From Monocercomonoides exilis PA203 (Eukaryota > Protista > Preaxostyla), in contig LSRY02000040.1 of assembly GCA_001643675.2 (NCBI GenBank), positions 434,001 through 498,000 of the forward strand: a stretch of DNA of 64,000 nucleotides, read 5' to 3'. A model generated the notes under the pieces. That model did no database searches. It had not been told where the DNA came from and saw only the letters and a program-made list of their open reading frames with translations. This document shows positions 14,761 to 61,491 of the stretch, piece by piece. The stretch's first letter is position 1. Every line of letters begins with the position of its first letter. The position numbers and the translations under genes were made by a program.

Positions 14761-14769
14761 GAAGAAACC

Positions 14770-15470
14770 ATATAATCCGCAAAAATGCAACTTGAAATGG
14801 ATTGTCACCAGGAATGACGCTCAACATAAAAAATGCTGTTCATTGGAATAGAAATAAAAAGACAAATAATAAAAATAATTGGCTTTAGGTTGATAATAAA
14901 AATTCCTCAAAAGAACACACCTTTCCTTTCTATCGCAAATGCAGAGGATTGTTCAACCACTGATGCTGCCAATCTCCTTTTCCATTGTTTCCCATTGTTC
15001 CTTTCTCCATCATCCTTTTTTCCCACATAAATGTCCTGCTTTTGATATTTCCATCCACTTTTATATCGAATAAAATCTTTTCATTCCAAGTGCTGTACAA
15101 ATGTTTTCATTCTTTTTTTTCCTCTCAACAAAATGCTTTGAAATCAAATTTGTTTTCATCCACTATTCCATTTGAAAACAAATTATATGTAATTCAAATC
15201 TGCTGATTGTGTATCGGAATCCAGCACTCTTCTCATGTTTAGCTCAGAAAAACAAAGGAATGGCCATTTATATAATTAATCAGATTCTTGGACTCTGAAA
15301 AGATGATTTCAAAAAGCATCTTCTCAACAAACAAGAACGATAAAAAAACGCATACATGCGAATATTTCGATTTTTAAAAAATTGTTGAATCTCCTTCAAT
15401 GATGCTTTTCATAAAATTGTCTTGCCCAATTCCATCGCGGATGCCTCGCGTTGCTGTCTCGTGCAACCTC
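14770..15470. repeat. Segmental duplicate (inverted) of 2310-3030
   Basis: ataatccgcaaaaatgcaacttgaaatggattgtc is a near reverse complement of 2994-3029; homology continues to ~15470. Confidence 0.8.
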
Positions 15471-15790
15471 TCAAAATAATATCGCCCATTCTGCAGAAAA
15501 TATTTGCTAACCGTCTCTCATTTTGGCAAGGAATATTTTTATTCTTTCAAATCTGATGATCTGAATATCCATTACTGCAAACACGAAAATAGATTTATCG
15601 TTTTTTCTTTCTTTGTTTGTTTGAAACGACTTGTCAAAAAAACACTAACAACGCAGAATGGTATAACAACTTATGCTTTCATGATTATTTCGAGCTTTTG
15701 TTTTGCACCTATTTCTTCTTTCCAATGGTATTTGATTTCAAATCAAATGACGAATTTTCGTTGTTTTCTGTCTGCAATGTGCTTTCAAAA

Positions 15791-17205: not shown

Positions 17206-17986
17206 GAAAATGAAACTCACTTTGTTAACAAATATTTTTATTTATTTTTTATTTGATTGATTAATTACCCAACAAAACTTTGACGGTTTTTTGTTAAAAA
17301 ACAAAAATATTTTTTTCTGTATTATCTGCTTCTGACCGTTCAGTTAATCTTTGAAGAAATGAGATTCTTCACATTTTGATATTCAATGTGCTTGTTTTTT
17401 CTTTTTTGAATATTCCATTAATCCGCAAACAACCGTTTGCAGCCTTTTTCAATTGAAAATTTTTGTTGAATTGCGTGATAAATTATCATCTTAGATGAGA
17501 ATGTTTGAGAAAAAGAGAGTCATATTTATTTTTTAACTCAAAAATTGATGCTTTTGTATTTGTATTTGTAACTCCAAATTTATTCATATTTCTTTTTATT
17601 CATTTCTCAAAATGTTTGTTTTTTTTATCATTTAGAAAAAATGAAAATAATCAATTTAGCATTTATCTTAATTTTTTTATTTTTGTCTCGCTTCATTTTG
17701 ATGAAATGAAGTGAAAAAGAGAGAGAGAATTAAAATGCCTTCCATTTTCTTCTTTTTCAAATGGTTTGTTTGTTCATCAAGTTTCATGAGACAATAAATC
17801 GTGAGTCCTTTTTCATCCATCAACTTGAAAAGTCTCTTCTTCGCTCTTTCTTCTCATCCGTCTGTGCAACTGTCTTTTGAAAAATACATCATTTGCTGAT
17901 TTTGAATGAACAAGAGTGAAGATGAAAATAGGAAATGAAGTTGTTGAAAATTTTTTTTTAAATAATTATCATCAACGTCCGAAGAA

Positions 17987-18266: not shown

Positions 18267-20935
18267 GGCAAGTTCCAAGAATATGGACCATCGAAAATAA
18301 TATCTTCACACTTATTGAACATCAAAAAATATTATTATAATTAATTATAAATTAGTTTTATCTGTCGAAAATATTTCGTACAAAACATTGTTTTTCATTG
18401 TTTGATCTATCCCATATTTATATTTTTCTTATTCTGAAAACAAAAACTAACTTGCAAGCGGGATACGCTGCGAAGACGCTTATCAATCTTATTTGAGTGG
18501 TTCCATATATTATTGTCTTTTGCTTACTGTTGATATTATGTATTGTTTTTTGCAAAATAATTGAGAATTTTGATATTTGTATTCTGTTTGCTTTTTTTAT
18601 TGATACATATTGCAAGTACTTTTTTTGTACATGTTATTTGTGAATATTGTCATTCATATGATTCAATATGGGTAACAACAAAAGAGAATTCATAGTTTTG
18701 AACTTCTTTTTTCTTTATTTCATTTCTCGACAAATAATAAATATATTTTGTTCTTTTTAAACTTGACAAATCTCTTCACATGCATTTATCACTTTTTTTA
18801 TTAATTATTATCATTATTTGTATATTGAATGAAGAATTTTACAGGTTGCATTAAAGAATATTTTTTGTTTCATTTTCCGTTTCTCAAATATTTTTCGTAA
18901 TTTCTTCCATTAGTAAGGTCCAATCTTTCATTGATTTTTTTCACCTAAAAATGTTTCAATTGTTTTGGAGCGTGAAAATTGCTTTATAATCAATATGAAA
19001 AACACTTCAATTTTTGAATAACACATTTTCTTCTTCTTCATTAATATCTTTGTTTTTATTCTCTGTTTTCATCTCCACTTTCCTTCACAACTTTCCTGGA
19101 GAAATTTCCTTCAAAAATATCTCGAGTTCATTTGGATTTTTTTCTGATAATGAATTCAACAATTATTACCAATTCATCTATTTTTTTCTATTGCTTTTTT
19201 CATATTGCAACCAATGAATTTGAATCAATTAATTCAGTGAATAATAATAAAGAAAATGTTTATTTCAATATTCTTGAACACCGTATATTCCTTTTTCTTC
19301 CTTTTGCGTGTTTTTCATTTCCATTTTGCTTGATCTCGCTTCTGTTAAAAAAGTAACATGTGACATTGTTATTGTTTAGTAATTCTTACAAACTATATCT
19401 AACACTAAATCTCAATTTCTTCATTTGTTCCAGTCCTTTTTTCAAGAGATGTATTTGCTCATTCTTCCACCATTCATATATTTCTTTGTTGAACTCACAT
19501 GTTGAAATCTCTTCTCAATCTCCTATCCAAAAGATCGCCTTTGGAAACAGAATATTTTGGATCAGCAACTCGCTTTTGGCAATGTTATACAGGCTGTCTT
19601 CCTCATCTTTCATCTTTATTTCCTTTTACTGTTGAAAGGACAAGCATGTTTCTTTTTCAGCTGTCACACCTTGAAAACGGTTCTCTTCTTCCAGCATCAA
19701 AAGTCGAGGATTTTCCTTTGCTGTGAACACTCCATTCAAGGACCTTATTTCCCTTTCCTCCTCTGATATGTTTTCCCTTGAAAAAGATAGTGATCCCTCC
19801 AACAAAGAAATTCATTCTGAAACTTCCTTCCTGTTTGTTGGACGATTTTTCCACATCTTTCATAATTTGAAAAGCTGGAAACCTCATCCTAACTATTCCT
19901 TGTAACTCTTATCCTCTTTCCTTCTTCCTCTATCCGATCAGCGATTCCTAATTTGCTTTTATCCATCTTTTCTGTAGTCCTTTTATATCCTCAAACTCAA
20001 TTAAGCTGTTTGCTGTGCTTTTCCTGTTTGTATTTAGTCTGTAACCCACAATGTGCGATATGTGCTCCTGTCTTTCACCAGCATTCAAACACAGCTGTTG
20101 TTCTCGCAACATGATGTGATAAAAATATATTTTCATTTCAATCTTAATATTTAAACATCCCTCGTTCTTCCATCCCTAATAAAAAAATCCTATTCAGCTT
20201 TCTTTTCATCCCTTCCAACAAATGGCTCCTCCTCAAAGACCATCACATCAAACTCTTCCCTGATTCCTATCCTTTTCCCAATTGCTGTTCGTATCTTCAC
20301 GCACCATTCTTCCTTTTGCTCCACATCTTTCCTGAGATTTCTTCAATGCTTTTCTGGATTTCAGCAATGTGCAACATTGTCTAACATTTAAGATATTGAT
20401 ATTCGAGTATTTGAATATTATATGAAATACAAATAAACATTTAACATCGTTATAGCCGGTATTTTCAATTGTTAAAGTCAACTATTGACTTTGAAATTTG
20501 TTCGAAACAGTAATTCAAAACATATTACAATCACAAAGAATGACATGGATTAAACGAAAAGTACACTGGTATTAAAATAATTTCGCAAAGATATTCAAAA
20601 AAGAAAAAAGATAGAAAACTTAATTTGTAACAAATTTCATCAGATCTTGAAAATTCAAAAACATAAAGTTAGCAGTCAGTGAAAGACAATAATATATGGA
20701 ACCACTCAAATAAGATTGATAAGCGTCTTCGCAGCGTATCCCGCTTGCAAGTTAGTTTTTGTTTTCAGAATAAGAAAAATATAAATATGGGATAGATCAA
20801 ACAATGAAAAACAATGTTTTGTACGAAATATTTTCGACAGATAAAACTAATTTATAATTAATTATAATAATATTTTCTAATGTTCAATGATTGTGAAGAT
20901 ATTATTTTCGATGGTCCATATTCTTGGAACTTGCC
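18267..20935. mobile_element. Non-autonomous Merlin-type TIR element with ~254-bp TIRs and decayed cargo
   Basis: 18267-18520 is the near-perfect reverse complement of 20682-20935 (termini GGCAAGTTCC...GGAACTTGCC). Flanks TATTTTTG / TTTTTTTG resemble an 8-bp TSD with one mismatch. TIR is homologous to the Merlin end at 21646. Confidence 0.85.
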
Positions 20936-21412
20936 TTTTTTTGGTTTTCCTTTCCGATATTTTCTTCTTCTCAGTAACATTTCATCTGCTTGAACGGTGT
21001 AATTATTTCCTCCAATTCTTCTGTTTTTTCCTTTAATCATTTCGTGTGCTGCCTTGCGAAAAAGATTCAAAAGGATGCAAATAGTGTTGCAGCTGGCTCC
21101 AGTCAAAAAAGATGTGCGCATCACATCAACATTAATCCACCATAACAGCATGATTTTCATATAAGTGGAAATCTATAATTTCGAATTCGAAAAAATTGAT
21201 TTGTGTCTGATTGAATGGAATCGACATTTGCACTTGCATTAGACGATATTTTTCGCACAATAAATGATTCTTGGTGTCTTTTTGCATTTTGTGCACATGT
21301 TTGCTGATGGTAATAATCTGAGCAATAACAACAATTCAATTGTTTTCCGTTCGTTTGAAAAGGATTTCATCAGCGTAGAAATATCTTTTTTTGAATCACG
21401 AAAAATTGGCAT
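20936..21412 (-). pseudogene. Merlin/IS1595 (ISXO2-like) DDE transposase, N-terminal half, truncated
   Basis: One frame: MPIFRD...LLPSANMCTKC...*CKCKCRFHSIRHKSIFSNSKL*ISTYMKIMLLWW...RIGGNNYTVQADEMLLRRRKYRKGK. Zn-ribbon plus the IGGxxxxVxxDE...RKYxxG signature; two in-frame stops; cut off by the TIR at 20935. Confidence 0.85.
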
Positions 21413-21646: not shown

Positions 21647-21653
21647 AAACTGA

Positions 21654-39652: not shown

Positions 39653-42600
39653 ATGAATTTAATAATAATAATGCAACTGTTTGCGATGTTACAAATAAAA
39701 TAAATTCAATCAAATGCAATTCAATAATTTAAATATGGGACAATGAAACAAAAGATTTGTATTTGAAAGATAAAGAGAAAATGGCTCATAAAATTCTTTA
39801 GATTAGGCCTTTGCTACAAGGAAAAATAATACGATGATTGTTTGTCGAATAACGAAACTTGTGTCGAGGGTTTTTTTTTTTAATTTTTTAATCAGATGTG
39901 GAAATTCACAATGAATTTTTTCTTTTCGTACTTTTGACTGAACAAGGTTCTTTATTAAAATTCAACAAATATGTTTAAAACATTTTTCATGTTCAAAAAA
40001 GAACATTTGCTCTTTCAAAAACACATATCAAGTGAAATATCATCATGCAATCTTTTAAAACTTACAAAATTCTGATGAGAATACTGTTATTTGCATTGCT
40101 TGATTATGCGATTATGAATAAAAATCGCAATCAAACCCAAAACAAAAATGAAAATGAAATTCAAAGGAATCAAACAAATAATGAGAAACATCAAGATTCA
40201 GAAATGAATTTTACAAATTATTTTAGAAACGGATAATTTCACATCGTTGCACATATTCATTCGTGAAGTCTGTTCATTTCTTTCTGCATCACTAAATGAC
40301 TTGAAAAATCACCACTAGTCAACTGTAGTTAACCATTGATAAGAAACTGAATCGTATTGTGAAATTTGCAATAGAAAAATGAGTAGCTGTTAGCGGATTG
40401 AAGAAAAAAAATGTGTCTTTCTCAATAAAATAGAAAAAAGAGAAATCACTGTATTCGTATTGGTTCAGAGAAACGATGCCAGAGTAACTGATTAAAGCTA
40501 AGATATCAATGAGTTGCCCAAACTGACTTTTCACGAAGCAGGAAAAGAGGAGATCCATTTTAAGTTTCAATGACAGAGGAGAGACAGAACCGGATCTCAA
40601 AGCAGCTTGATATTTCGATATGGAACTTTTGACTGGATAAACAGTATCAAACAGCTTCAGATTACTCTTTATGCAATGTGAAAAGCCAGCAGATTCGTAA
40701 GCAACTTATTCAGATTGAAGCAAATAAGTTGCACGCAACGAAACACACGAAAAGATAAGACAGTTACCAGTTGTAAAGGCTTATGAACGAAAGAACAAGC
40801 AGAAAAAAGGAGCTTTGAGAAAAAATGATGAGTACCTAACAGATTGAACTGAGTGCTCTGTTAGAGATGAGGCTTATGCTTTGGTGATTCTTCTGGTTCA
40901 AGTATCCAAAGTAATTCCCCTCTTCTGCTAAATTGCCTTCTCGTTGTAATTTAAAGATGGGCACATAGAACAAAGCAATGATCCCATCTTTCCTCAGTTC
41001 GCTATAGATGGAGTATCCAGCCGAGAAGGAGCACAAAACGAGAAAATTGTGAAATCTTCCCATTGCCTGCCTTTGGTGACTGTGTGATAATTTGTACGCT
41101 TTATGCTGCTGGTTGGACAAGTATTCATTCAACAATGAACGAGACAACTTGGCATATGTAGAAGTAACTTACTGCAAAAGTCCCACAACATTCTTCACTT
41201 TTCAAAAAGCGATGAATAATTTCAGATAATTTCTTTCTTTGTTTGTTAATCTGGCTCTTCCAGAAAAACCATTTATCTATCTCAACTTCCTTTTTCGAGC
41301 TCTTCATAGCACATCTTAAGTCTGAAGAAACATTTGTAAATGGAGCAAACCCCTCCGCTGAGTCTACTGAAAGGTTGATTTTCGACTTGAGAAGCAGCTG
41401 AGGCTTTTCGAAGAAGTCCTCTTTATGCCTCAAACCAGCTGCGAAGATGAGCCTCAAGTTCGAACGGATGATCGCATTCTCCATATAAGATGAGTCTTTC
41501 AGTGTGCATGATGGAGGATATGTTTTTTTAAAAGGTGGTCCCTGTGTTGCAGTTTGTCATAAGCCCTTTCCAATCACAGGTTCTGCTGATGAATGAATAC
41601 CAATTTCCACACATTCACAAAGAATACAGCATCGATCGCGATGAGTTGGTCGAATGTTGTTGTCTGAATGATGAATAAGATGTGTGCATTGTGGCATGAA
41701 GCATTTCTCAAGGAGAAGTCCTCTGTTCAACACACGAATAACCGCTTGGTTCCCATCACGATCGTGTTTATTTTCTTCTTCAACTTCTTCGTTTCAACCA
41801 GATGCTTTCATAACGTGAAAATCTTCTTTCTAACTCTCTCTTTCTCTTTTTTTCTCCAAAAAAATTCATCTTTTTTCTTTCTTTAGCTTTTTCCTGAATA
41901 ATATGCTTTACGGTATTTATATTGATGTTTCTTCGGCTCTATTCACAATCTCGTTCACATTTTAATTCTCTTTGTCCGTTCTGCCTCTATTGTCTGCTGT
42001 GTGTTTGATTCGCCATGCCACTTCAAGAATGTTGATTGAAGTTGACTTCATAACAGAGTCGAAAGATGTTGTGCTTGAACGTTGTATCTCTTCCATTCAG
42101 GTCATCAAAGTGATAGCTAAAGAATGGATATGAATCAACAAACTTATTTCGTTTGGATAAACATCAGCATGAGAAAGCAAGTGGATTTGAAAAAAGAAAG
42201 AAAAAGAAAAAAAGATTACAAACCAAAATCAGTTCATCCTTGTATCAGTATATAAATCGTCTGTTGATCTTGGATCTGCTTTGGAAACTTGTGGCGCTCT
42301 CTCTCTTTGGCTGTCTTACGGTTATATTGATAAAGAATCAGGAAGCAATTGATGAATGACTCTCATTTCTCACTAGCAGCTCGTCTTTTCTTGTTGGCTA
42401 GCTGTTCGAATATGAGGTGCTCGCAACAAACAACTCAGAAAGAATAAAAAGATACACTTTGTCAGATAAAGCTTTGCATATTTGCTTAGAAGGATGCGAA
42501 TGGATGTACACTTTTGTGGTCTTGGGCTTCATGACTTGATCGAAGATATGGGGCAAAATATTTTGCTTCAAGCTTTTTCATTGAAAAAATATGCACTTTT

Positions 42601-42744
42601 CATTGACTTTTTGAGATCAAAAAACATTATTAAATAAGTCGATTTTTTGACATTCGTTAAATGTTGGAAAACTTTATGTTATGATTTCAATGATGCCTGT
42701 TTACGAATATGAAAATAAAATTTATTTTGAAATCTGATTTCGTT

Positions 42745-43135
42745 TTAAAATGTTATTAGAAAAACAACTTTTCTATGCTTTGTGTAAAAAAAAGCTTGAA
42801 AGTCAATATTTCCCCCCATATGTTCAAGTTTCTTTTCGGTTTTGTCATAGTTCAAATTCATCCACTGTTCATCGCCTTCACTCCTGAACTTGATCTGCAT
42901 CACTTCCTTTTCTTTCTGAAAAAATTTCAGCATCTTTTTGTTTGTCTTCTTGGAAACAGAATCCATCCAGTTTCCAGCCCAAACGATTATCACTCAATCT
43001 TTTGGATGAACGCATTTTGTGATCGCACTGCACAGTGTCGTTTGTACACACCAGTTGGACTGATACATTTGGAATAGCGTTCATGTCAATGAAAGTTTTG
43101 TGATAAAGACTGCTGATTCGAAATCCAGCAAACAA
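42745..43135 (-). pseudogene. Decayed coding fragment of unknown family
   Basis: Protein-like overlapping ORFs (IVWAGNWMDS...EQWMNLNYD...IDFQAFFY) with no intact gene structure. Confidence 0.25.
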
Positions 43136-44005
43136 GTAGACAGTGAGGTCTCAGTTCATGAATCTACATGTTTTAGTCCTGTGTTTGATTCTGAATGATC
43201 AGAAGAAAAAGAGAAAGAAGATTGATAAATTTGAATTGCGTAAAAACCGATCTAACTTTTTTTTGGTTGCTGATTCAGTTTGTGATCAAGCTTCATATCT
43301 TCGTGTAAAAACCCCTTGCAGCGTGCGTGTGAGAAGGTCAGCGACAACCAATGTGAATTTTCTCATGCTGATGATATCAATACCCAATCATCTGCTTATT
43401 TTTGTAACAAATTTTCTAAAAGCTTCAGTGATGAATCTTTTTTAAAAACATACAAATTATTTCTTAATTAGAAATACTCATTAATAACATAAATTCAAAC
43501 TATTCTTCTTTTGAATCTTTTCATTCTTCTTTTTCTGTTCAAATCAGCTGAAGAATTACAGAATTCTATGTTATTTACGAAATTCGTAGATTATTCCAAT
43601 TTATATTTTAATGAATGACTTTCACTTCCATATTAATAATTATTAAATGAAAATCAAATTGAATTGAAAATTATCTTCATTAGCAGCAGCATACACAATA
43701 TATAATATGGCTGATCCATTTTGATATCACACTTTCGTTCAAGTTTTAATCCAAATTTTAATATCAATGGGATTTTTGTAATAAATTTGTTTATGCAATA
43801 ATAACATCACGAACAACATGTATTATCTGTTCAAGTTCATTTTTTTTAAATCCCATTGAAAAAAAATTTAGATCAAAGCTCGAACGAAATAATGATTTTA
43901 AAAAGGATCAGCCATATCTTCTATTCATATTCATTACATTAAAAATAAAAACAACGATTTCATGCAAACCTTTCAAGAAAATTATCCGGTTATTTCTTGG
44001 TACAG

Positions 44006-44356
44006 ATATCGCATAAATACCGGACAAGATCGATATCACAATAACTGTAAGAAGAAAAATTCTGACTATCTTCCTCAAAATACATCTCATCAGTACAAAC
44101 TCATTTGATAAACGAGGCTTAATGAATAGCTTCATTTGCGCTCAGAATAAAATATTTTTAAAATCTCAGAAAAACTCAAAATCCTATTTCTCTGAGATTT
44201 TAAAAACATTTTATTCTGAGCGCAAATGAAGCTATTCATTAAGCCTCGTTTATCAAATGAGTTTGTACTGATGAGATGTATTTTGAGGAAGATAGTCAGA
44301 ATTTTTCTTCTTACAGTTATTGTGATATCGATCTTGTCCGGTATTTTATGCGATAT
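44006..44356. repeat. Long palindrome: ~165-bp arms with a 20-bp spacer
   Basis: 44006-44170 is the reverse complement of 44191-44356 with one substitution and one 1-bp indel; mirrored ORFs 43908-44135 and 44132-44392 reflect this. Confidence 0.95.
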
Positions 44357-46079
44357 ATGTATATCGTGTTTGTTACCAAATTTCATAATCAAATAATAGT
44401 TGTGGATTTCAATTCAATCGTTATTTTTGAATCACAATGTTAAAATATTCACATATATAAACTGAAATAGTGTGAAACAAAATTCTCCTTTCCACTAGTG
44501 ATAAATTTATTAAAAAAGTTCAAGCACTCAATTCAAAATTCATTTCAATCAATTAATCATTTTTCAAAATATAATTTGAAAAAATTGAAATGAAAATCTG
44601 TTTTAAAAAAGAATATCCATTCGACTGATGGATCTTTTCACCAACTGATCTTTCGATCGACTGATCTTTGTCGGTTAACTGATTTTGACAAAGATCTGTC
44701 GATAACCCATTGACAAATTCAAAAATAAATGAAGAAAATATTTGTATGTTTATCTTTTCATGAAAATTTTATAAATTATTAATTCAAATAATATTTTAAA
44801 GAAAATAGAAAAACGAAATCATATTAAGAACGTTTTTTTTTGTCAATCAGTTTGTCAAATTCAAGCTGATTGTTTTGTCGGTCGGCTTGTCGAGACTTAA
44901 AGTGAAGAGTCGGTTTGTCGCAGAGGCCAATTACTGATATTGACGATATTATTGGCGAAAAAATCGAAGGAGAGAAAACTGAATCAGAAAATGACAATGG
45001 ATCAGGAGAAGGTGAAAATGCATCAGAATATGAGTCCAAAAATTATTGCTGATGATTATTTCACATCATTTTTATCATTGACTACTTTTTTCATATAAAA
45101 TAAATGGAAATAAATCACAATAAAAAAGTCATTTGGGGAAAAATACAAACTTTCAAGCTTAATATGCACAAAGCATGAAAAATTTGATTCACTTATAACA
45201 TTTTTGAACTTACCCAGATTATAAAATAAATTTGATTTTCATAACTGGAAACAAACATCATTGATATAATAACATCATGTTTTGTGACATCAAACCTATT
45301 TCAAAAAAAATAAACACATTTATTTCGAAAATTTTGTTATCAAAAAGTTCATCAATGATGCATAATATTTAAATGAAAATGCCTGAAGTCAAATATTTTG
45401 TCCCAATTGTCGAAATTCAGTGAAATGGAAAAAGAAATAAAAAAAAGAAGTGTTAAACGATGAAAAATAGCCAAAATTGTAAAGAAGTTATGTTCAATAA
45501 CAATGACAATACTTAAAAATCTCAAAACAAAAAGCTCGTGAAAATACGAGCAAGTCTTTGATCAGAAAAATAAAACAAAATACACCAGATCTTTTCACAA
45601 AAATTGAAATATGAAAAAATATTTTCAGAAATAGTATATTATCATATATTAATAATTTTCTATTATTTATTTTTTTCGAAAAGTGCTCCTGTGAGCCAGA
45701 AAATTTAGGTCCCGACTAATTTTTTGGGTACCGATAAATTTCTGACCCTGCTATGTTTGTTCACAATGAAACAGAATAATTTCATTGAAAAATGATATCA
45801 TAATAAATTTTTACAGTTAAAATGATTGATTCTTTAAGAAAGAAGATTACTGTGAAGTGCTATGATGATAAAAGAACATTGCAGCTATTGAGAAATATTT
45901 GAAAATTTTCGTGGATTGTTTTATATTATATCTGAAATTTTTGTTTTTTCTTATATTTTTTGTGATTATTATTATTTGTCTCAAAAACCAAAAATTTTGA
46001 TGAAACAAACTTCACATACACCCAATCCTTCAGGCTGCAACAAAGCACAAGTGCAGAGAAAGTTTGAAAAAATGCTCAT

Positions 46080-47585: not shown

Positions 47586-49455
47586 CCACGAAAACGCTCT
47601 TTTTCTGAGTTGTGGGAAAACGATAGAATAGAGTTTCTTTAGGCGAGAAATCGAAATGAAAAGAAGACGAATCTATGCGAGTTATGCATAAATTATTGTT
47701 CTGAGCCAACATCAGATGAACGTATTGAGAGATATATGAAAGATCAATTCAGAAATGGAGAATGCTGCAAATGCTATCACCTGCTCATTCTGTTGATTTT
47801 AACAAAAATCCCATAGTAGCCATTAAGCATCGGACAGATTCCACAAAATGTTTTCCACTCCAACATCATACGCTGAAGTCTGTGAAACTCAAATTCCAGA
47901 TGAAAGATAACATCAGTGGCTTTTTGGTAGTTTTGTTGTCTGATTTCATTTCCCATTCTCCACAAGACGCTTTTTCAATTTCAATATAAATCATCGATTC
48001 TTAAGCAATAATTTTTTTTCTTCTTCATTACTCGAGTAATCTCTGATGCATATGCAAAAATATGAAGAAATTCAATCGGATGAAGTGAAAGAAGTGAAAG
48101 AAGAAGAAGAAGAAGCTGCGTGAAATGTTGTTGATGTATTTTAAGAAGAAAAAGAAGAAGATGATAATTAATGAATAGAATGAGATGATTGGTTGTTGTA
48201 ATTGAGAAGATAAGTGTCAATAAATATCAACGGAGAAATTCAATGAAACTCTCGTCTTCAGGTTTTTGTCTTTTTCTGGCAAATAATAGCCTCTGAATCC
48301 TTTTTCAATTTTTGCTCAATCTCTTTCTCTCTCTCCAACAAAAAAATAAAAAAATATGAAATATTGAGCGATTCTTTTTTCATTCCATCTCTTCTTCTTT
48401 CGCTTCCCTTTTTTCACAAAAAATCACCTTTTTTCAAAAATAATTCTTTGTCAAAGCCCCAATGCCAAGCATCTTCGAAATATCTCGCATTTCATCTATC
48501 TGTCTGTATTTTTCCTTCCCCACTTTTCTTCTTCTTCAAAGTCACCTAATCCTTCGCTCTTTCAACACCCTGAATAAAAAAAGAATAATCACTTCAAAAA
48601 ACAACAACAAACCTTCAGAGCCTATTTGAAACTCAAAATCTATTTTTCATTCGATTAAAAAATAGTTTTTAATTTTAAAAATTCATTATTTCTTCCGTTT
48701 TCAACAATCTTTCAAGTAGCTTCATTGAATATTCATTTTCAGCTATTTCCTCCCTCTGAATGATTTGATTTTATACTTTCCTGAAAAGATTGGAGATTTT
48801 CATTTTCTTTTCAATTTCATTCTGTTTTACCGAAATCATCCAGCCAAACGAACTTGCAATCTATTCGTCATGTATAATCGTCAACTGTCCTTTCCTTCCA
48901 CCTGAGATATTCTTCCATGAAAAGAATTTTTCTCATTTTTTCGTAATAAGTCTGATTTTTTTCGGCTTTTGGAAAGGCAGAAGATAAAAATATCATCATT
49001 TTCAATGAAACGACATTTAATGCAAACATCTACTTATTTTCATTGAAAAATTAAATTTCAGTATTTCCATATCAAACCTATTTTAAAAAATGATCTCTCA
49101 AAAACAAAGATTTATTTATTTTGATCATTGTCAATACGCCAACAAAGGAAATAACATTTCTGATTTCGAAAGACAAATTTACACATAGCGTTCTCAGTTT
49201 TCAAACAAATATTCCTGTTCTGTGAAAATAATTTGATCAAAAAATCCATAACAACAAACAAAGAGTTTTGAAAAAGTATTGTATCTTTTCATAATTATTT
49301 AACACAAATATAAATGCAAAAAATGACGGTATTGGCTCTTATATTTCTATGATTATTTCGAGATTTATTTTGCGCAAATTTCTTCTATCCAAACATAAAT
49401 GAATTCATTTTAAATGCCGAAATCTGTTGTTTTCCAAATAATACGCTTTTAAAAA

Positions 49456-50870
49456 ATGCAGGAGATGGACAACACAAAGAAGTTCACTGGTGTGCAGGGA
49501 TCGTAGATGAAATTTTTTTGATGATTATTATTTTTCAATTTTCATTTATTTTATGAAGAATTGTTTTCCCAGTTGGGCAGCAACTCAGCCGATGAGCAGA
49601 AACAGAAAATCGAAGAAATGATTAGCATAGTAGATGAAATGAATGAAAGAGAATTCAGATCTGTTTTTACAATGGAACTGTTCAATGAAATGGACAAAAT
49701 GATTGAAGAAAGGAAGCTTTCGATGGGAAATGCATTCGTGCTGCTGAAACATATTGGATATTTGAAAGTGTTGAAAGATATATGGATTGATAGATTTGAT
49801 AACTCTCCGTTGAGTGTCAGATTTGAAGAGATGATTGTTGATGAAAATGAGAAGAAAAAAGAAGAAAAGGATGAAAAGCTTTTGACAGATCTCTGTGAAT
49901 GCTTTCTTGCACTCAGTAACTATTCTTCATCAAAATTGCATTCAATCTATGTGCCTTGTCTTCTGAAAGTTGCACAAAAGAAAGAGAAAAGCGTGGAGAC
50001 CCAAAAAGAAGTGGAACTGGCTTTGCTTGCTTTGAGCAACATTATCTATTTTGTATGAGTACTTCTATTTGATTTTTTAACATTTTTATTTTTCTATCTT
50101 CTTTTTTTAAGAAAGTTTGTGAAGAACTGTATTTGAATGAAATGACAGAAATCATCAAATATCACCAGGATAATCAGAATCTGACACGACTTGCCTATCA
50201 ATCAGCTTGGCGGTTTTTGATGTTCAGATTTGTAGACGAAAAAAAGTTGGAAGACATGATTGTGAATGATCTGCATTTTGCAAGAGAAGCAGCAAAAGAA
50301 CTGGAAGATCTGTCAAAGAGTATGGATTGGAAGAGAAAAGAAGAAAGAAGAAAAGAAACAAAAGAAGAGCTCACTTTGATGAGATGGTTGCAAATGTTGG
50401 TTTCTATTTTATATTCATGCGAATTATGGAACGAAGAATTTGCTGGGCTTTTAGGCAGTATTGACCAGGTGCTTCTGACAGCAAAGGATAAAAGCAGAGA
50501 AATTTTCTTCTTGTGTGTTTATTCATTCAGAAATGCAGCAGAAAATAGAGATGCGAAAGCTAAATACCTGTTGAAAGGTGGAGCTGTTGATGTTATTTTG
50601 GAGGAGATTCACCAGTTAACAATGAATGACAAACTGGCTAGTGAAAGCTTCCATTTCTTTTTGAATATTTCAAGGCGATTGGAAGGAAAGAAGGATGATG
50701 AAAAGGAAGAGGAGGAAAGAAAAGAATTGAAAAGAAAGATATTTGATAAGATGGAAGAAGAGGGATACGAAGATAAAATCACAAGTTTTTTTGAAACATT
50801 TGATTTTTTCAACAGAAAATATTATAGCAAATTATCAATAATTATTTCTGATTATTTTTTGAATGCTTGA
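49456..50870 (+). CDS. Lineage-specific hypothetical protein, family copy 5 (3 exons)
   Basis: Exon 1 MQEMDNTKKFT|GT, exon 2 = ORF 49561-, exon 3 = ORF 50133-50870; family motifs present. Confidence 0.8.
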
Positions 50871-51317
50871 GGAAATGAAATGTTTTTTCTTTTTCTTTTT
50901 CTTTTTCTTTTCTTTTCTTTTTTCTTTTCACAATTCAACAAACAATTGAGAAATTTTTTTCCCAAACATTTTTTTATTCCGCTTCATTTTGATGAAATTG
51001 AAATATTGAAAAGATTTTTTTGAAGTGTTTTGTCATTTTCCTCTTTTATTCTTTCAAAAAATGTCTATTTTATTCATTCATTCATTCATTTATTTATTTA
51101 TTTATTTATTTATTCATTTTTAAATTTTGATGCCATTAAAGAAAATAGTTCCAAAAAAGAGATGACCCTGACTTTTTTCATTGAATTTTCCTCTTCAAGG
51201 TTATAAAAAATAAAAGGATATTTAAAAATCTTATGCAAACTGTTTTCAATTTTTTGAAATGCTCAAAAAAGAAAAAGATAAAGAAAAAAACATTTCATTT
51301 CCTCAAACACTCACAAA

Positions 51318-52737
51318 TTAATCAGAAAAATTCAAAGATAATCCACGATAAAGTATACAACGAAGAGAAATGACTCCATGAAAGCTAATGATAACATTTT
51401 CGCAATCTTCTTCTTCCATCCTTTCAAATATCTTTCTTTTCATTTCTTTTCTTTCCTCCTCTTCCTTTTCATCTTTATTCTTTTCTTTCAACCGCCTTGA
51501 AATATTCAAAAAGAAAAGAAAACAATTCCTTATCAAATCATCATTAATTGTTGGCTGCTGAATCTCCTCCAAAACAGCACCAATAGCTCCGTTTTTCAAC
51601 AATTCATCAATTTCCACATTTCTATTTTCTGTTGCATATCTAAGTATATCGAAGTATCTATTGTGAATATCTTTGTGATTGTCCCTTGATGCTCGTAACA
51701 CTTGAACAATGCAATTGATAAGACCAGCAATTTCTTCGTTCCACAATTTGCACGAGGTAAAGTAATTATCAATAGCATAAATCCATCTCTCGATAACAAG
51801 CACTTCTATTCTTCCATTTTCTTCTTCATTTTTATTCCAGTCTAAATACTTTGATAGATCTTCGATTTCTCTTCTTGCTTCTCTTGCGAAATGCAGTTCA
51901 TTCACAATCACTTCTTCCAAGCTATCGACTTTGGGAAATCCACAAATCAAAAACTGCCAAGCCAACTGATAAGAAAGCCGTGTCAGATTCTGATGTTCCT
52001 GGTGATGTTTGATGATTTCTTTGATCTCATTCAAATACAGTTCTCTTTTCATTTCCTATGCAAAAAAGGAGGAAAAAACAATTCAGCAATATCAAAATGG
52101 GAAAAAGGTTTTCAAACCCAATATACAATATTGCCCAAAGCCAGCAACGCCATTTCCACTTCCTTCTGAGCTTCTTCGGTCTCGTCTTTCTTCAATGCAA
52201 CTTTCAGAAGGCAAGGCACAACAATTGAAAGCAATTTTTTTGGAATGCTTCCTTCAATCAGCAAAGCAAAACATTCACAAAAATCAGTCAAAAGCTTTTC
52301 ATCCTTTTTCTTCTCATTTTCATCAATTATCATCTCTTTCATCCTTTCGCTCAATAATGAACAATAAAAAGAATATAAGAAAATCTTTTTCAGTACTTTG
52401 CAAAATCCAGCATGTTTCAACAGCAAGGTTGTTCTTTCCAATGACAATGAATTTTTTTCAATCATTTGGTGGATTTTATTGAAGCACTCTTTTGTGAAAA
52501 CTGTTTGAAATTCTTTTCTATTCATTTCATCTATCATTCTTTTCATTTCCTCCATTTTCTGTATTTGTTCGTCTTCTCTACAATGTTCCAGTTCGCAAAA
52601 CAATTCTGCAAATAAGTTTCAAAATACAAAAATTTTGTTCAGAATTGGTCAATCCAAATTAAAGAACAAACTTGAAAACTGTTCTGTTTTAGTCATCATC
52701 TCCGTTCGTCTTCAGATATATCATTTGTCAAACTCAT
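51318..52737 (-). CDS. Lineage-specific hypothetical protein, family copy 6 (possibly decaying)
   Basis: ORFs 52112-52603 and 51318-52052. Exon 1 MSLTNDISEDE is frameshifted relative to copy 2 (rescue ATG at 52699), and a TAA replaces the conserved Tyr of SDYFVxV. Confidence 0.7.
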
Positions 52738-53559
52738 TCTGCATGTTGCAAAAAATATTCAAAAAGAGGTGCAAAGCTTGGCAAATAACAAAATAAAAGA
52801 TAAATGCAAACATCGTTGATTATCTTGCAAAATAAATCAATTCGAAATACAAACTGTTCTGTTTTTGCTTAATAAAAAAAGGGCAAAACGGAGTGCAAAG
52901 AAGCCGCAAGGATTGGCTGTATTAAGCTAGAAATGGAAATCTTTTGTTTATTTTTGATCATAACCAACAGATTATTTGAAGCATAATGTTTTAATTTAAA
53001 TTCATAAACTTTTTGAATCACATTGTTTTTTCCAATGGAATAAATATCAAATCCTTTAGCAAAGAGGAAAAGAAATTCGGCAGATTGAATGAGTGAACGG
53101 AAGATGTTTTTAGTTGTTTTTTGTGGAGAAGAATGAATTTGAAAACAAGAACAGATGATTTTTGAAGGTTTGGTATATTTTGTGAATTGTGTCATTTTGA
53201 GCTCATTTGTCAATGGATCATTGGGTTATGAAGGAAGAAAAGAAATGAAATTCAGAAAATCATCACAAATTGTCTGAACAAAAGAAAAGATAAGAAAAGT
53301 TCTTGAACATGGAGAACATTATTGTAGTGTGGCAGAAGATCAAGGCTCCAATGCTTCAATTGCAGAATAATCCTGTGCCATGAAGAAAAACAATGAAGGC
53401 CAGCTCCAATAGAAATGATGGAGATTCCCAAGTTTGGTGATGGTGAAACATCAAAAGGAAATTTATTCATTTGATTGGATGTTAAAAACAGATTTATTCA
53501 TTCAAGGCTGTTTTCATTTCAGCTGATCTGAGATTTGGAGAAGAAGGAGGAAGACGACT

Positions 53560-54100: not shown

Positions 54101-55709
54101 ATGAAAACTCGACTTCCTTGTTCTTTCATCTCAAGTGAGCACACGAATTCAACAAAGAGAGACGATTGAAAGGAATAGGCAATAATCAATAGAGGAAGTT
54201 CCCCTGATAAAGATGCTTGATGAAAAGGATGAAGAAAAGATGATAGTGAAACAGAGAGAAGAAAATGAAGAGGAGGATTCTTTCCAGATGATTTTCATCC
54301 ACAACAGTTTCAGTCAGGTTATCGAGAAAGGAAACGAGCTTTCAGTCTTTTTCATGATTTTTGCGAAAGGGAGACGTTGAATGGAAGAACAATATTGAAA
54401 ACTTCCCACTCAAAGGAAGCTGAATGGAATGATTTAAGTGTGTTGCATTTTTCATTCAGCGGAAGACCGAAGAAGATGATTGAGGTACTTTTAGGGAGAG
54501 AAAGATGAAAAAAATAAAGAAGCTGTTTGTGACAAAATTCTTTTCGATGTTGAGGAAGATAGATTGTCTTTAATTTGGATGAAGTCCATGTTGGAGGAGC
54601 AGGGGAATTCTGGTTGTTGCACACAATAAATTGAAATTCACTGTTTGAGAAAGAGATGGAAGTGAAGATGGTGCGGAAGAGAAGTGAGAAAATAACACTT
54701 TCTATTTGATTGAATTCAACAAACAAAACAAATATTCTGAAATGGTTTCTGATGAGGAAGAAAAAGAAACGGAAGAGTGAAAGAAATAGCGAATTTTGAC
54801 TGGCACTTTCTTTGCTTTAGTCCACATATGTCTGTGCCTTGAACATCATCGTGAAGGCACTATCAATCTGAAAAATCATTATTTATTCAACTTTAATTCA
54901 AAAATAAAAATCAAATGAGAGTTATTCCAGATGTTATTCAATTCTGTCTTTTTTCCGCTTTTTCGCAATCGAAAAAATTCTTGAGTTCTCAGAACATAAC
55001 AATTATGAAAATTAGAAAACAACAATAACAAAATCAAATGTTGCACTTATTCACTCGTTATTAAAGCGTTTGTGCAACTTGTCTCTCAAAAACCCAATTC
55101 GAAATAAAAAAATGCACAATTTTTTATTCAATATTCCAAAACTTTTTATTCATATAAAATCAAATTGTTATTCTTTTTTTAAAAATTGTAAGAAATTAAT
55201 TGTTCACTGGCTGTACGCCGAAAAGTTATTTTGATATTCAATGTTGTAATAAATCGTTTAAAGGATGAGAAATTGGATTAATGAAAATATTTGTTTCAAT
55301 ATAACATAAAAATAAAACATTTAAAGATATGGCATATCGGCTATAGATCCATCTCGATTAAGATCAATCAATATTATCGATTTATGTGTATCTGGTGGTA
55401 GTTATCATCTTATGAAATAAGTTGGAATAGGCAATGATAATAAAATAGAGATCGAAGTTGTTGCTGATATTCTTAGGGGTTATCATGATTTGATTTTCAG
55501 TGAAGTTCAATAAAGATGGAGTTATTGATAAGTGCAATCGAGATATATCCATAGCTGACATACCATATCTCCAAGGAGAAGATTAGCTACAAGATTAACT
55601 GAAAGATTAACCGGAGTGTTGAAGATGGTGAATTAGTGTGAAAATTGGTATTATCGTTGATGAAAATTGCAAATGAAATTAATTGATTAAGTTTTTTGTT
55701 TTATAGTAA

Positions 55710-55934
55710 ATGGGTCGGAAGAAGATATACGCAACTGTGGAAGAAGCGAAAGCGGCTCAACAGAAACAAATTAAACAGTTTCAGGAAAAACGGAGAGAAG
55801 AAACTATGTATTACAACGAACATGTATCTGAAAAACAGAAGAAGTTAATTAAGATATTGAGAAGAAAGCTCATCGAAAGAGATGAGCTGTTCGATGAGAT
55901 GTTGGAAAAAGTTAATGAATATTTGCCTGCGTAA
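55710..55934 (+). CDS. Small basic helical protein in the left TIR (74 aa)
   Basis: MGRKKIYATVEEAKAAQQKQIKQF...; intact and near-identical at protein level to the right TIR copy despite several synonymous differences. Confidence 0.7.
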   Translation: MGRKKIYATVEEAKAAQQKQIKQFQEKRREETMYYNEHVSEKQKKLIKILRRKLIERDELFDEMLEKVNEYLPA

Positions 55935-56404
55935 TGTTAATTGAACGGTTAATGTGGAAATTGACAAATTATAACTTTTGACGAACGTTTGTTGTATCGT
56001 CACATGTATAAAACAGTTGTCACGATGGTATAATAGTCGATTGCCAACATCTACAATTTTTCACGAAAAAGTATGAATCTGTGGACAGGACACAGAATTG
56101 TGGCAATATCTGAGGCTCAGTTGAAGGGAAATATTAATTTATATCTACGTACTGGAAGCGTAGTCAGGTAGTCAAGTAGTCAGGATCTTTAAATTTCATC
56201 TGAAAAGATATGCCAACATACCATTTCTGCCAACATGTGTGTTTTACCCCCAATTTGTCATGATTTTGATGTATATTTGTTTTTCAATTAGTGTTGTCAT
56301 TTTGCCACATTACCACATGATATCGTTGATGGTGTATAACAGTTGGCACACATCAGTTGTATTGTTTTTGTTTAAATGATTCCAAGAAAACAAATATGTT
56401 TTGT

Positions 56405-58742
56405 TTATTTCCACAGAACAGTCCATGTCATCTTCATCTTCTAATTGTTTGAGGAGTTGTTCATACTCTGGCTTGAGTTTTTAACACCACACTTGGTTTC
56501 CTCTTCCACCTCCTCGTATTCTCTCACATCTGTCTTTAATTGCTTGTTGGAATGAGAGATCGTACTTGTATTCAACTGTTCTGAAACATAGTGCTTCAGA
56601 ACATCTCCACACTTCTTTGTGCTTATTGTAATGCTCTGGACAGAACACATCGATGACAGAGAGTGACGTTGCAATAATATCTTCTTTTGCTTCCGTTGTC
56701 GGAATAGCCCTTGTGTTGAAATTGGTGAGATCTTTGCTGATGAAATAACAGAGAAGTTGTTCATTGAATTCATTGTTGAAAAAGTTTGTGAAATCCTAAA
56801 AGAATGTGAGATTGTTCTTGTATTTTGAGTTTCAATCACAAACAACATATCTTCTGTCGCCAATCTCAATTTTAACTGGGTATGTGTGATTTGTCACAAA
56901 TATGAAATTAGCTACTCTCTCAGCTGTTCTTCTTGGCTGATTCTTCTCATTGATTCTGATTGTTGAATCCGTGATTATTCTCTTCAATGCATCAAAGTTA
57001 GCTGTTCGATCATCTCTAACATTCTTCAATTCGTCGAGTACAATCAGCATTTTCCCTTCGACGATGGAGTTGAACTGTCCTGTCAGTTCTTCAATCTCTG
57101 TGACATTTGGACACGAATATCCTGCCAACAGTTCAGTGAGTGCATTTGTCCAGACGTTCTTTCTTATTCCTTGCAAACCTTTGAGAACAAGTGACGTTTC
57201 TGCTTTTTTCCCAGGATTTTGAACAATTGACACAATCCAACAGAGGATATATTGATAGAGTTCTTCGTTGTTGTTAGCGATAACTTCTCGTGTGAAATCG
57301 AGGAATGGTTTGATGATTTCGTCATTTTGTTCGTTTTCCATTTCGTATTTGAACACATGGAACAGAGAGAATATTCGAGGGTTATCTGAGAAAAACTTCA
57401 TCTCATCGATCGATAGAACATGAGAGTATTATTCGAAAGCTGTCTCAACTGTGAGAGTCTTTTTGTCATCATGCCAGAGTTTTATTGTTTTGAACAGTTC
57501 GCACATTGCTGATATTGTCTTGAATGTTATCGAATAACAAGAGGTGTGAATGTCAGACTCTTTCACAATGAATTCCATCCTTGCTTCAACAAATCTTAAA
57601 ACTTTTGTGTGATCTTCAGCAACTTTAGACAGTGAGGAGTATTGTTTTCGATAAGCTTTTTCCCTGATTTCAGAGTACGAGAACGATGAGTTGAGATCTT
57701 CTTCATGAACAGTAATCTCTCGTGGAGGTTCTTCCTTTTGCTCATTCTCTTTTCTGAGGAATGGAATGATCACATCGCTGTCATTTGTTGAATTCCATCT
57801 CTTGACAATCTTTTGGAGAACATATGAATGTGACGTGTTATCTCTGGATCGGTTTCGTTTCTCTTCACAGTGAGTGATTGCATTTGCTGCAAGAGCAGCT
57901 GTCTCTTTGATTTGAGTGTTAAGAAAATCTTTCGATTCGTTGTCGAAACCATCAATGTTGACGAGAGAATTGAGAGCTGCAAATAACTGTAAAAGAGTTA
58001 ACTCAGAATCAAGTGACAAAGAACCTGTAACGTTATGAAAATCAACATCTTTGAGTCCATCAACAAGAGCAAGATCGACGGTTGGAGACAAATCAACGAT
58101 TCCATCTTGTGTGAGAAGATTGTGTGGTTCAGCTGCCATTGTCACCGATGAACTCTTTGTTTTGAGGTCAATACCGAAAATGTCAAGAACACTCTCAAGT
58201 GATGAAAGATCTCTGAGCTCTCTGTAATTGTTGAGGGGAATGCATTTGGTGATGATTCTCTTTCCATCTTTCATTTCTCTGTATGAAGAGTCAGCTTGAA
58301 CAACAAGCCTTTGTTTTCCATCTCCAATACCTGCAAAAATGTCGACATCGAACTCCTGACTCGCAAACACTTTGGTTTGAGACGAACATTTGAGAGGATA
58401 ATCACACAGCTCACAATAAATAAGAAGACCACCATGAGCTGTTTGCACAAGTCAGACGTTTCGGTGGAGTTTTTCGAGAATGGAATTCCTGATGGTTTTC
58501 GTTTGTTCATCTTGAAGGGATTTGTTGATGTCAACATCAACGACACAAAGATCCTCACATTTGCTGATATCGACAGCTGTTCCAGTGTGTCGTTTGTCCT
58601 GCTTCTTGTCAGAGTATTTCTTGAAGTCGAACAAATCAACAAAGTGATCTTTCATTCGTTCTCCCATCGTTTGCTGTTCTGTTGACATTGAATCAATTTG
58701 TTGTTGGATTACGTTGTCAGAGTCTGTTTGGGTGAATGCCAT
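56405..58742 (-). pseudogene. AEP prim-pol fused to D5-like superfamily 3 helicase, ~780 codons, five in-frame stops
   Basis: Single frame across ORFs 58452-58742, 57429-58448, 56832-57401 and beyond. AEP motifs LCVVDVD and VQTAHGGLLIY; Walker A LKGLQGIRKN, Walker B LIVLDE, motif C FIFVTN, Arg finger DRRY. Stops at 58452, 57429, 56832, 56796, 56481. The 3' end is approximate. Confidence 0.85.
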
Positions 58743-59023
58743 TTTATAAAAATTTAAAAAAAAACAAAATTATTTTGAAAAAGATTCATTTTTGAAACGT
58801 AAATTTACGGGAAATATGTTGTTGGGGTTTATGTCGAAAATAAACGACAACAGTTAATTTTCACAAACAATGTATTTTGCCCAATCTGCTCACTTTGACA
58901 GATTGCCCATATATTTTGGAGAATGAAATTGACCTATTCCACACTGTGCACACTGTGCAGATGTTAAAGCACAGAGATTTAATTCAATATTTCCACACCA
59001 CAGCATCATAATTATCTGCCCAG

Positions 59024-59254
59024 TCAACCCTGTGCAGGCAAATAACCATTAACTTTTTCCATCAACTCATCTAACAACTCATCATTTTCGATAAGCTTTC
59101 TCCTCAATATCTTAATCAACTTCTTCTGTTTTTCAGATACATGTTCGTTGTAATACTTAGTTTCTTCCTTTCGTTTTTCCTGAAACTGTTTAATTTGTTT
59201 CTGTTGAGCCGCTTTCGCTTCTTCCACAGTTGCGTATATCTTCTTCCGACCCAT
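59024..59254 (-). CDS. Small basic helical protein in the right TIR (76 aa)
   Basis: Inverted paralog of 55710-55934; intact. Confidence 0.7.
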   Translation of the reverse strand: MGRKKIYATVEEAKAAQQKQIKQFQEKRKEETKYYNEHVSEKQKKLIKILRRKLIENDELLDELMEKVNGYLPAQG

Positions 59255-60162
59255 TAACTATAAAATATAAAACAAAATCAATTATTTTTTATTTGCGATA
59301 ACACCAACGATAACACCAACACATTCAACACATGTTCAACACATATCACATTCAACATACAACACATGTTCGCATTAATTCACCATCTTCAACACTTTCA
59401 GCTAATCTTTTAGCTAATTCTTCTCCTTGGAGATATGGTATATCAGCTATAGATATATCTTGATTTCACTTATCAATAACTCCATCTTTATTGAACTTCA
59501 CTGAAAATCAAATCATGATAACCCCTAAGAATATCAGCAACAACTTCGATCTCTATTTTATTATCATTGCCTATTCCAACTTATTTCATAAGATGATAAC
59601 TACCACCAGATACACATAAATCGATAATATTGATTGATCTTAATCGAGATGGATCTATAGCCGATATGCCATATCTCTTCTTTTTCTCAGTATTTTCATA
59701 ATCCTCGAAATGTGATAATTATTATAAGAATTTGTGAAATACTGTAGAAGAATGCATCATTTTCTTGAAGGATATATAAGCATAGAAATGATTTCAGAAC
59801 AACAATATTTTACAAATTAAAAGTTCAGAAAATGTCTTAACGATTTTTTTAATTGAAATTATATATTTTTGAATTGTGAGAATTTTTTTTTGAAATTATA
59901 TTTTCTCAAGCAGAAAGTTTAATTTGAAAATTCTCTTTGAATGTCAACATGAAAACACTAAAAAATGAAAAGATTTATTCAAAATATCTTCATTTTCACT
60001 TCAACAAAAACATTAATTTTTGAAGCGATTTCGAAAATGATGGCATTTGAATACATAATCTCTTCCCTATGGCATGCAACCTTCGATAAATCAACATTCC
60101 GAAAAAAGTTATGATTTCGAAAAAAACCTCCCATTCAAATAATTCGAAAATATTTTATTGTG

Positions 60163-61139
60163 CTATCCATTTTCCTCTGACCTCTTTTTCACCACCGACC
60201 TTTTTTCATGTGAATCTTGCTCCAGCTTAATACGAGCTCGCAGCCAACGAAAAATGACGAGAAATGTTTATTTTAATAAATTTTACAATGAAGTTATAAT
60301 TTTTTAACGAATTTTTTTTCCCAAGAGATTTCCGTAATTTTAAATTTTATTTTTGATCATTAAATTGATAGTCTTTCCATGAGAATAACACTCTGGAAGT
60401 TGTAAGTTTCATCATCAGAGCTTGGAATATTCTTTTTATTGTTTTTATGACTTTTCACTTTTCACTTGTTTCTTTTTCACTTGTTTTCTCATTTCATCCA
60501 CTTTTCGAAATAATTAAAATATGAATTGGAATATAAACAATTGTTATATTTAATTAGCTGTATCTCATTTTTAAAATCATTATATTGTTGCACACTCATA
60601 TAATTTTTTGCCGAAAAAATGAAACTGGTTGGAAATATCAAAACTACTGAAATTGATGTTTTTCATTTTTCTATTTAAAATCAAATTTGTAAAACTTTTT
60701 TGTATACCAACATGATTAACATTTTAACATATATTAAGGATCATCTTATAATTTTTTACAAAAATTCATCATTCTTTAAAAATTTTAATTTTTTCGAAAA
60801 GTGGATGAAATGAGAAAACAAGTGAAAAAGAAACAAGTGAAAAGTGAAAAGTCATAAAAACAATAAAAAGAATATTCCAAGCTCTGATGATGAAACTTAC
60901 AACTTCCAGAGTGTTATTCTCATGGAAAGACTATCAATTTAATGATCAAAAATAAAATTTAAAATTACGGAAATCTCTTGGGAAAAAAAATTCGTTAAAA
61001 AATTATAACTTCATTGTAAAATTTATTAAAATAAACATTTCTCGTCATTTTTCGTTGGCTGCGAGCTCGTATTAAGCTGGAGCAAGATTCACATGAAAAA
61101 AGGTCGGTGGTGAAAAAGAGGTCAGAGGAAAATGGATAG
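60163..61139. mobile_element. Non-coding foldback/MITE-like element with ~358-bp TIRs
   Basis: 60163-60520 is the near-perfect reverse complement of 60782-61139; 261-bp AT-rich spacer; no ORF and no clear TSD. Confidence 0.85.
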
Positions 61140-61491
61140 TACAGAAAATGATTGTTTCTTCTACTTGAAAAACCTAAATTTGTTTGGGATTTGAAATTTC
61201 AACTGTTTCATGAAACTGAAACAAAAATGTTTTTTCAAAAGAGTTTTATATTTTGATATATAAAAAGTAAAAAACATTCAAAAAACATATTTGCAAAAAT
61301 TGCAATTTAGCAAATTTTACTTCTCAGAGTTTTTGAAAAAGAAACAAAGAAAAACGTGAAGTGACGCAAAATTGAAAGAAATTTAAACTTACTCGAAATA
61401 TTGATAAAAAATTAACAATTTCCAATTGTTTTTGAAAATTTGAAAATAAATCTAATTTCTTTCTATTTTTTAAAAAATGAATTGAAAGCTT

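Follow-up and report, generated by a model that had tools for sequence, protein, structure and literature searches.

Why would a mobile element carry, a short distance inside each of its ends, an inverted copy of that same end? The question is raised by a locus of the oxymonad Monocercomonoides exilis, which we analysed within a stretch of 64,000 nucleotides (contig LSRY02000040.1, hereafter the window, to which all positions refer). A preliminary description, made from the letters alone, had noticed the arrangement and offered two explanations for it: a hairpin on which single strands would prime their own synthesis, or a pair of binding or recombination sites. It also held that such a layout was not expected of a simple cut-and-paste transposon, and the anatomy given here bears this out.

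The terminal repeat had been reported to recur in inverted orientation at about 55536-55570 and likewise at the right end, and it does so on both sides (Table 1). On the left, positions 55325-55359 and 55536-55570 are complementary at 29/35 positions (83%) and lie 176 nt apart; on the right, 59430-59465 and 59642-59677 reach 86% (30/35) over the same distance. Dinucleotide shuffling of the unit (300 replicates) gave best inverted matches over 35 nt that averaged 20 and never exceeded 25, so that 29 or more was attained in 0/300. The left inner arm of the focal copy thus differs from the outer arm at 6/35 positions, compared with about 3-4 in the family majority. The outer arm is the physical terminus of the element, for the flanks of other copies diverge exactly there. 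The right arm begins one base further out, with a pair between 59430 and the G at 59677. Other copies extend the repeat to 59678, where two unitigs stop, and behind 59678/59679 loose ends set in. This makes the terminus either AGAGATATGG or GAGATATGG next to an invariant A. On the left, the focal copy has A, not G, at 55324, and in each of the four runs (4/4) AG is the last dinucleotide of the loose ends before 55325. If the first A belongs to the element, the end reads AGAGAT, which matches (AG)3 at 5/6 positions. The focal copy has no perfect target-site duplication (TSD), ACATTT on the left matching TCTTTT on the right at 4/6 positions.

Table 1. Coordinates of the focal element and its parts in the window
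Feature	Positions	Strand	Basis or remark
Left outer arm, left terminus	55323..55359	+	Arm pairing; loose ends of other copies
Left spacer ('loop'), 176 nt, 30% GC	55360..55535	.	Between left arms
Left inner arm, inverted copy of outer arm	55536..55571	-	Arm pairing
Inner part of left TIR	55572..55953	+	8.6% substitutions plus indels vs right
74-aa ORF in left TIR, inward-pointing	55710..55934	+	ORF list
PrimPol (AEP) + D5/SF3 helicase gene, one frame	56310..58742	-	Five internal stops
Inner part of right TIR	59011..59429	-	TIR alignment
76-aa ORF in right TIR, inward-pointing	59024..59254	-	ORF list
Right inner arm	59430..59465	+	Arm pairing
Right spacer	59466..59641	.	176 nt between right arms
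Right outer arm, right terminus	59642..59678	-	Arm pairing; ends of other copies

These end units of about 250 bp, in which the ORF list holds no frame of 60 aa or more, fit the usual portrait of a MITE in being short, non-coding, multicopy and provided with inverted ends of their own. They form the outer parts of TIRs of about 630 bp that delimit an element of 4.35 kb. Its coding content is limited to the PrimPol-D5 gene and the two ORFs of 74-76 aa, and neither the ORFs nor Pfam revealed an integrase, transposase, protein-primed polymerase (pPolB), capsid, packaging ATPase, HUH nickase or protelomerase between 55323 and 59678. The left and right small ORFs differ at 13/74 codons (6 synonymous, 7 not); the sole homologue found for the left one is MONOS_17995 of M. 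exilis, and searches for a family, a fold or an Atlas match gave nothing convincing. Over 55684-55872, the small-ORF part of the TIR, the summed contig depth exceeds that of the terminal unit several-fold in sequencing run X1 and up to about twofold in runs X2-X4, and additional elements may therefore contain this short ORF sequence. Rfam returned a single match, far below threshold, and thus no RNA gene; the matches listed in the sequencing-run search were DNA runs only, with no RNA dataset among them.

The primase-helicase gene of the focal copy is broken, its internal stop codons starting at 58454, 57431, 56834, 56798 and 56483. It shares 84% identity with an 804-aa 'poxvirus D5' protein of M. 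exilis (P0005), and with this protein at least one family member appears to have an intact reading frame. Close relatives are annotated on at least eight contigs of differing length, many of them truncated, and one of these contigs may be the focal locus itself. With Foldseek, the N-terminal model of a more distant relative (L001; pLDDT 59.5) had the primase-polymerases of NrS-1 and pRN1 as its top matches (E 6e-5), and the full P0005 model retrieved the NrS-1 helicase region, the ASFV PrimPol and poxvirus E5/D5; the family also matches Pfam DUF5906 (E 2e-21). The family proteins are accordingly modelled as an N-terminal Prim-Pol fold, at low model confidence, followed by a C-terminal SF3 helicase. 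The Walker B motif of the helicase reads NE, not DE, in most family members (P0005, P0004, P0013, P0014, P0016 and L001), and DE in the focal copy and P0010.

The ancestry of this gene can be approached through its neighbours elsewhere. A single relative with DNA context was retrieved, from genome contigs, with 40% identity (L001), on a contig filed in a sheep-colon MAG; the viral contigs and metagenome contigs searched gave none, and tblastn against plasmids matched the helicase domain only, at 23-30%. The contig of this relative (L003, G001:C84:1-9384) is 9.4 kb long, is cut inside the primase-helicase gene and displays no TIR or arm. It also carries an ORF of 837 aa, similar to protein-primed PolB in its C-terminal part (Atlas score 0.96) and without a Pfam, PHROG or PDB sequence match, next to a weak A32-like ATPase (E 0.002) and a DUF4108 gene (E 6e-6, just below the curated cut-off). 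Mavericks of T. vaginalis contain a DNA primase domain protein, according to a passage of PMC7845603, and a metamonad virus group includes Streblomastix in the corresponding part of PMC10120064. Together with the gene neighbourhood of the relative, a single cut contig without TIRs, these reports suggest that the cargo is likely derived from a Maverick or Polinton-like virus (PLV). The sheep-colon contig itself looks like a Maverick/PLV-like fragment in a bacterial MAG, and is probably a mis-binned virus of a gut protist.

Other copies of the element are known from short contigs of four DNA runs, all made from one sample of one study. Contig depth summed over the unit, a measure that does not give a copy number, amounts in every bin to 25 or more times the flank depth, and the 4.35-kb element is a multicopy family. 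Most inner arms run on into the inner TIR, the depth staying high over 59396-59430, so that solo units are at most a minority. Inner arms joined to heterogeneous flanks occur in four contigs of X2 (behind 55571) and four of X1 (before 59430), and a contig of 7,873 nt holds the inner half of the spacer and the inner arm, followed by unrelated sequence. In the majority of flank-joined inner arms the adjoining letter is T after 55571 and A before 59430, as at a free terminus, the attached inner arms of the focal copy having C/G at those two positions. That the unit might be an independent MITE present elsewhere had been named as an outcome that would refute the initial proposal, and it is partly borne out: the inner arm meets unrelated flanks in a minority of contigs, but no listed contig spans the whole unit with both flanks, and the TSDs of other copies are unreadable. 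Short unitigs fit a solo unit and a flipped end alike, which weakens the idea of a functional hairpin without eliminating it.

Rearranged and variant copies add to this picture. One copy comprises the outer arm and the spacer up to 55529 and then leaves the reference, without an inner arm. The search for flip/flop orientations, in unitigs that are short, gave no joint of outer arm to inner TIR among the 5 + 3 joints listed. Two opposite-strand joints at the edge of the inner arm (55420-55536 and 59465-59631, each at about 1-2 single-copy depths) bring the outer half of the spacer next to an arm of the inner type; they may represent a divergent outer arm or a rare inversion. Of the best 40 of 55 variable sites, the spacer (175 nt) holds 30, the inner arm (37 nt) six, the inner TIR four and the outer arm (37 nt) none. 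At these sites the variant density of the outer arm differs from that of the spacer (P=0.003), partly perhaps through a filter against sites near contig ends, and that of the inner arm does not (P=1). The variants at 59442 (11%) and 59459 (29%) in the inner arm break pairs with no partner change among the sites listed, and the compensatory changes between arms that one might look for under the first proposal did not turn up, no two-sided change being present among the best 40 of 55. The family-majority letters restore pairs at 55535, 55550, 55559, 59461 and 59466, giving better pairing than in the focal copy.

The two ends of the focal copy have an unexpected relationship to each other. From 55325 to 55534, 210 nt are 100% identical to the right end; differences resume at 55535, 55540, 55550 and 55559 and then affect 8.6% of the inner-TIR columns, a rate at which 210 positions without difference have a chance of 6e-9. 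Both ends share at least six private letters (55412, 55414, 55415, 55444, 55504 and 55531), defined as letters absent from about 80% or more of the family depth in most runs. A 124-nt contig without difference to the ends has about twice the single-copy depth (171.6 vs 80.8), which rules out assembly as the source of the identity. Once the focal copy had diverged from the family, one end received the outer 210 nt of the other; gene conversion or panhandle repair is the likely route. The identity tract, seen in one copy only, stops at the inner arm.

Two observations connect these ends to other inverted-repeat elements of the window. The motif AGATAT[GC]G stands within about 8 nt of the end at three of 14 such ends (42544, 43919 and 44004), which belong to three unrelated elements, compared with a background of 0.0006 per site; its [GC] position was picked after inspection of the data, and an exact AGATATGG match is found at two of the 14. 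There is also a second inverted pair of self-armed units of about 280 bp (42542-42825 and 45130-45409, 73% identical). With its own inverted arms and an inverted partner, the unit at 42542-42825 repeats the layout of the focal ends.

The interpretation that we favour, with moderate confidence, is that both ends of the element are MITE-like modules, each possessing an outer and an inner end, that the two modules enclose a viral cargo and are moved in trans, and that the hairpin is a by-product. The arms, the TIRs, the multicopy family, the broken PrimPol-D5 gene, the absence of an integrase and the inner arms abutting unrelated DNA are established. A module would consist of two inverted copies of the end sequence of the element, and two modules, themselves inverted, would bracket the primase-helicase. 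An integrase or transposase supplied in trans could recognise the arm as double-stranded DNA, so that the complete 4.35 kb would be mobilised through both outer arms, and a single unit might now and then travel by itself on its outer and inner arms, as IS50/IS10 do in Tn5/Tn10. The fold-back would simply come with carrying two inverted ends. Of the two initial options, the pair of binding or recombination sites, here predicted sites, is the one that fits best. The identity of arm and terminus, the free inner arms, the outer arm without listed variants, the shared end motif, the second armed pair and the lack of an integrase, transposase or nickase ORF speak, on balance, for the module interpretation. 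On the other side, the flank-joined inner arms could equally be flipped ends of full elements, the focal copy lacks a perfect TSD, the family majority pairs better than it does, and the mobilising enzyme was not found. A plain composite of two MITEs gives no account of the inner TIR and its small ORF, which are inverted-repeated as well. As for the nested repeat, it probably belongs to the architecture of a transposon end.

The sole large gene of the element being a primase-polymerase-helicase, the inverted arms might also be the binding sites of a double-stranded origin, between which PrimPol-D5 would load, unwind the spacer and prime, the element being a minimal satellite that replicates itself and relies on a helper Maverick/PLV for integration. 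We find this rather unlikely. The spacer is poorer in GC (30%) than the arms and the gene (38%), which favours this reading, but the host flanks are richer in AT still (22-23% GC); the inner arm is conserved no better than the spacer, and primase-free, non-coding elements of MITE type have the same end motif. The family member P0005, at least, appears intact, which, like the close relatives on at least eight contigs, is in keeping with a self-replicating family, and panhandle repair of a free linear form would account for the identical ends. For PLVs, inverted repeats were proposed as a recombination substrate and an origin for the adjacent primase-helicase, in a portion of PMC11296320. A fuller version, in our view unlikely, would make the 4.35 kb a minimal self-synthesising element with PrimPol-D5 only, whose two-armed units act as origins and integration ends at once. 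It adds free linear amplification, panhandle end repair and the integrase of a helper Maverick, and, if true, would mean that an oxymonad harbours a Maverick satellite that is nuclear and driven by a primase.

The self-priming hairpin of the preliminary description, a single-stranded fold at each end whose 3' arm primes synthesis across the element in the rolling-hairpin manner, is poorly supported and appears very unlikely. Its geometry is right, the 3'-terminal arm pairing with the inner arm with template beyond; the flank-joined inner-type arms and the two opposite-strand joints are compatible with rare inversions, and the left/right identity tract ends at the inner arm. Folding the terminal 250 nt, as had been suggested, confirmed the paired arms, with a poorly ordered spacer in the predicted fold, and yielded a weak stem-loop: at -25.4 kcal/mol (z -1.93), 9/200 shuffles were equally stable, and the last base faces G in a G-T wobble. 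A panhandle of the whole TIR (-291 kcal/mol) is far more stable than the local hairpin (-22 to -29), and within it no template remains. The element encodes a PrimPol, which renders self-priming unnecessary, and no HUH nickase or protelomerase for resolution; the inner arm drifts like spacer, and among the sites and joints listed there is neither a compensatory change nor an outer-arm-to-inner-TIR joint. It is more doubtful still that the layout is an accident, in which a MITE inserted at the extremity of a pre-existing TIR element and was copied to the other end, its outer arm becoming the new end of the element and its inner arm remaining functionless. Variation of the inner arm at the rate of the spacer, the copy that leaves the reference at 55529 without an inner arm and the likely gene conversion between the focal ends would agree with such a history. 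Against it, the inner arm of the family majority has no more than about 3-4 mismatches to the outer arm, and some contigs show it as a free end.

Among known systems, the Polintons or Mavericks, and those of metamonads (Trichomonas-type Maverick/PLV) in particular, come to mind for their TIRs of several hundred bp; the focal TIR of about 630 bp fits within the range of 100-1000 bp given in the relevant section of PMC4196379. The end, which starts with AG if its first A belongs to the element, is close to the (AG)3 motif of a passage in PMC8097293, Maverick ends reading (AG)3 or (AGT)2, and the primase-helicase gene has its 40% relative beside pPolB-like, A32-like ATPase and DUF4108 genes. The focal element differs by its size (4.35 kb vs 15-20 kb), by the lack of pPolB, integrase, ATPase and capsid genes and of a 6-bp TSD in the focal copy, and by the nested inverted arm in each TIR, a feature not described for Mavericks in the portions of the literature compared. 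Without pPolB, integrase, capsid or TSD, it does not belong to the Polintons. Transpovirons and Tlr1 are likewise TIR elements with a helicase and a link to Polinton-like viruses, but the section of PMC5499653 concerned reports an inactivated polymerase to which a superfamily 1 helicase is fused, unlike the AEP PrimPol and SF3 helicase found here. A search of viral contigs with a 16-nt pattern of the arm found 73 single matches, all confined to 28 nt or less, which were attributed to chance.

The bacterial transposons Tn5 and Tn10 consist of IS50 and IS10 modules with outside and inside ends around a cargo. Like them and like MITE-bracketed composites, the focal element encloses a cargo between two inverted modules whose inner end deviates slightly from the outer one, and its modules seem to occur alone; unlike Tn5/Tn10, it is eukaryotic, its modules measure 250 bp and contain no transposase, and the inverted repeat extends about 380 bp further inward, with a small ORF. 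Replicons of the parvovirus type are hairpin-primed, with a terminal fold-back and an HUH nuclease. The focal ends share the fold-back geometry and differ by the missing HUH nuclease, by a loop of 176 unstructured nt and by the lack of a clear flip/flop. Kolobok elements target TTAA and Harbinger elements TWA, and Mutator insertions have a 9-bp TSD; the first two were considered since TTAA precedes 55325 and ruled out as the right flank and the flanks of other copies vary, and Mutator was rejected as the focal copy has no TSD. MULEs with multiple TIRs, as described in PMC3310237, are non-autonomous, have external and internal end copies on both sides and were proposed to make aberrant use of the internal end. 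Their extra TIRs are mostly tandem and longer than 100 bp there, whereas the extra arm of the focal element is 36 bp long and inverted, and no 8-11-bp TSD accompanies the focal copy.

Unclassified repeats make up about 35% of the M. exilis assembly, according to an excerpt of PMC8767320, and the focal element defines one such family and links it to viruses of the metamonad Maverick/PLV type. In the sections concerned, the M. exilis genome papers give repeat classes only and do not name this family. No description of it appeared in the open full-text literature searched, and table S11 of PMC6759080 (196 genes of transposon or viral origin) may already list genes of the family. If the module interpretation is true, the element would be a eukaryotic composite of MITE-like modules ferrying a viral replication gene. 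If the arms form an origin, it would be a very small self-replicating transposon of the primase-based kind, a possibility discussed in a passage of PMC6431247, and the arms would provide a defined substrate for an assay. The main interest of the locus lies in its primase-helicase cargo and in this testable alternative, rather than in the nested repeat.

Further inverted-repeat elements surround the focal copy. The element at 42542-45409 has a left unit starting AGATATGGGG, about 2.3 kb without Pfam match between its units and a possible 5-bp TCGAA duplication that may be due to chance. Two smaller elements with AGATAT[GC]G near an end are nested in it: a 229-bp MITE-like element with arms of about 80 bp (43697-43925), and a near-perfect fold-back of 361 bp with 160-nt arms and a 12-nt spacer (44001-44361). 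At 18267-20935 lies a 2.7-kb element with TIRs of about 280 bp (95%) starting GGCAAGTTCC, with a third related end near 21649. The minus-strand frame beside it (20858-21172) resembles, by eye, a fragment of an IS1595/Merlin-type transposase; Pfam detected no transposase in the cargo of the neighbouring elements, this frame included. At least six dispersed copies (66-75% identical) of a host gene family of about 1.3 kb are spread over 563-17215 and 49338-52977. Finally, a 1-kb fold-back with unrelated ends (60149-61153; 412-nt arms at 94%, 181-nt spacer) lies 470 bp from the focal element.
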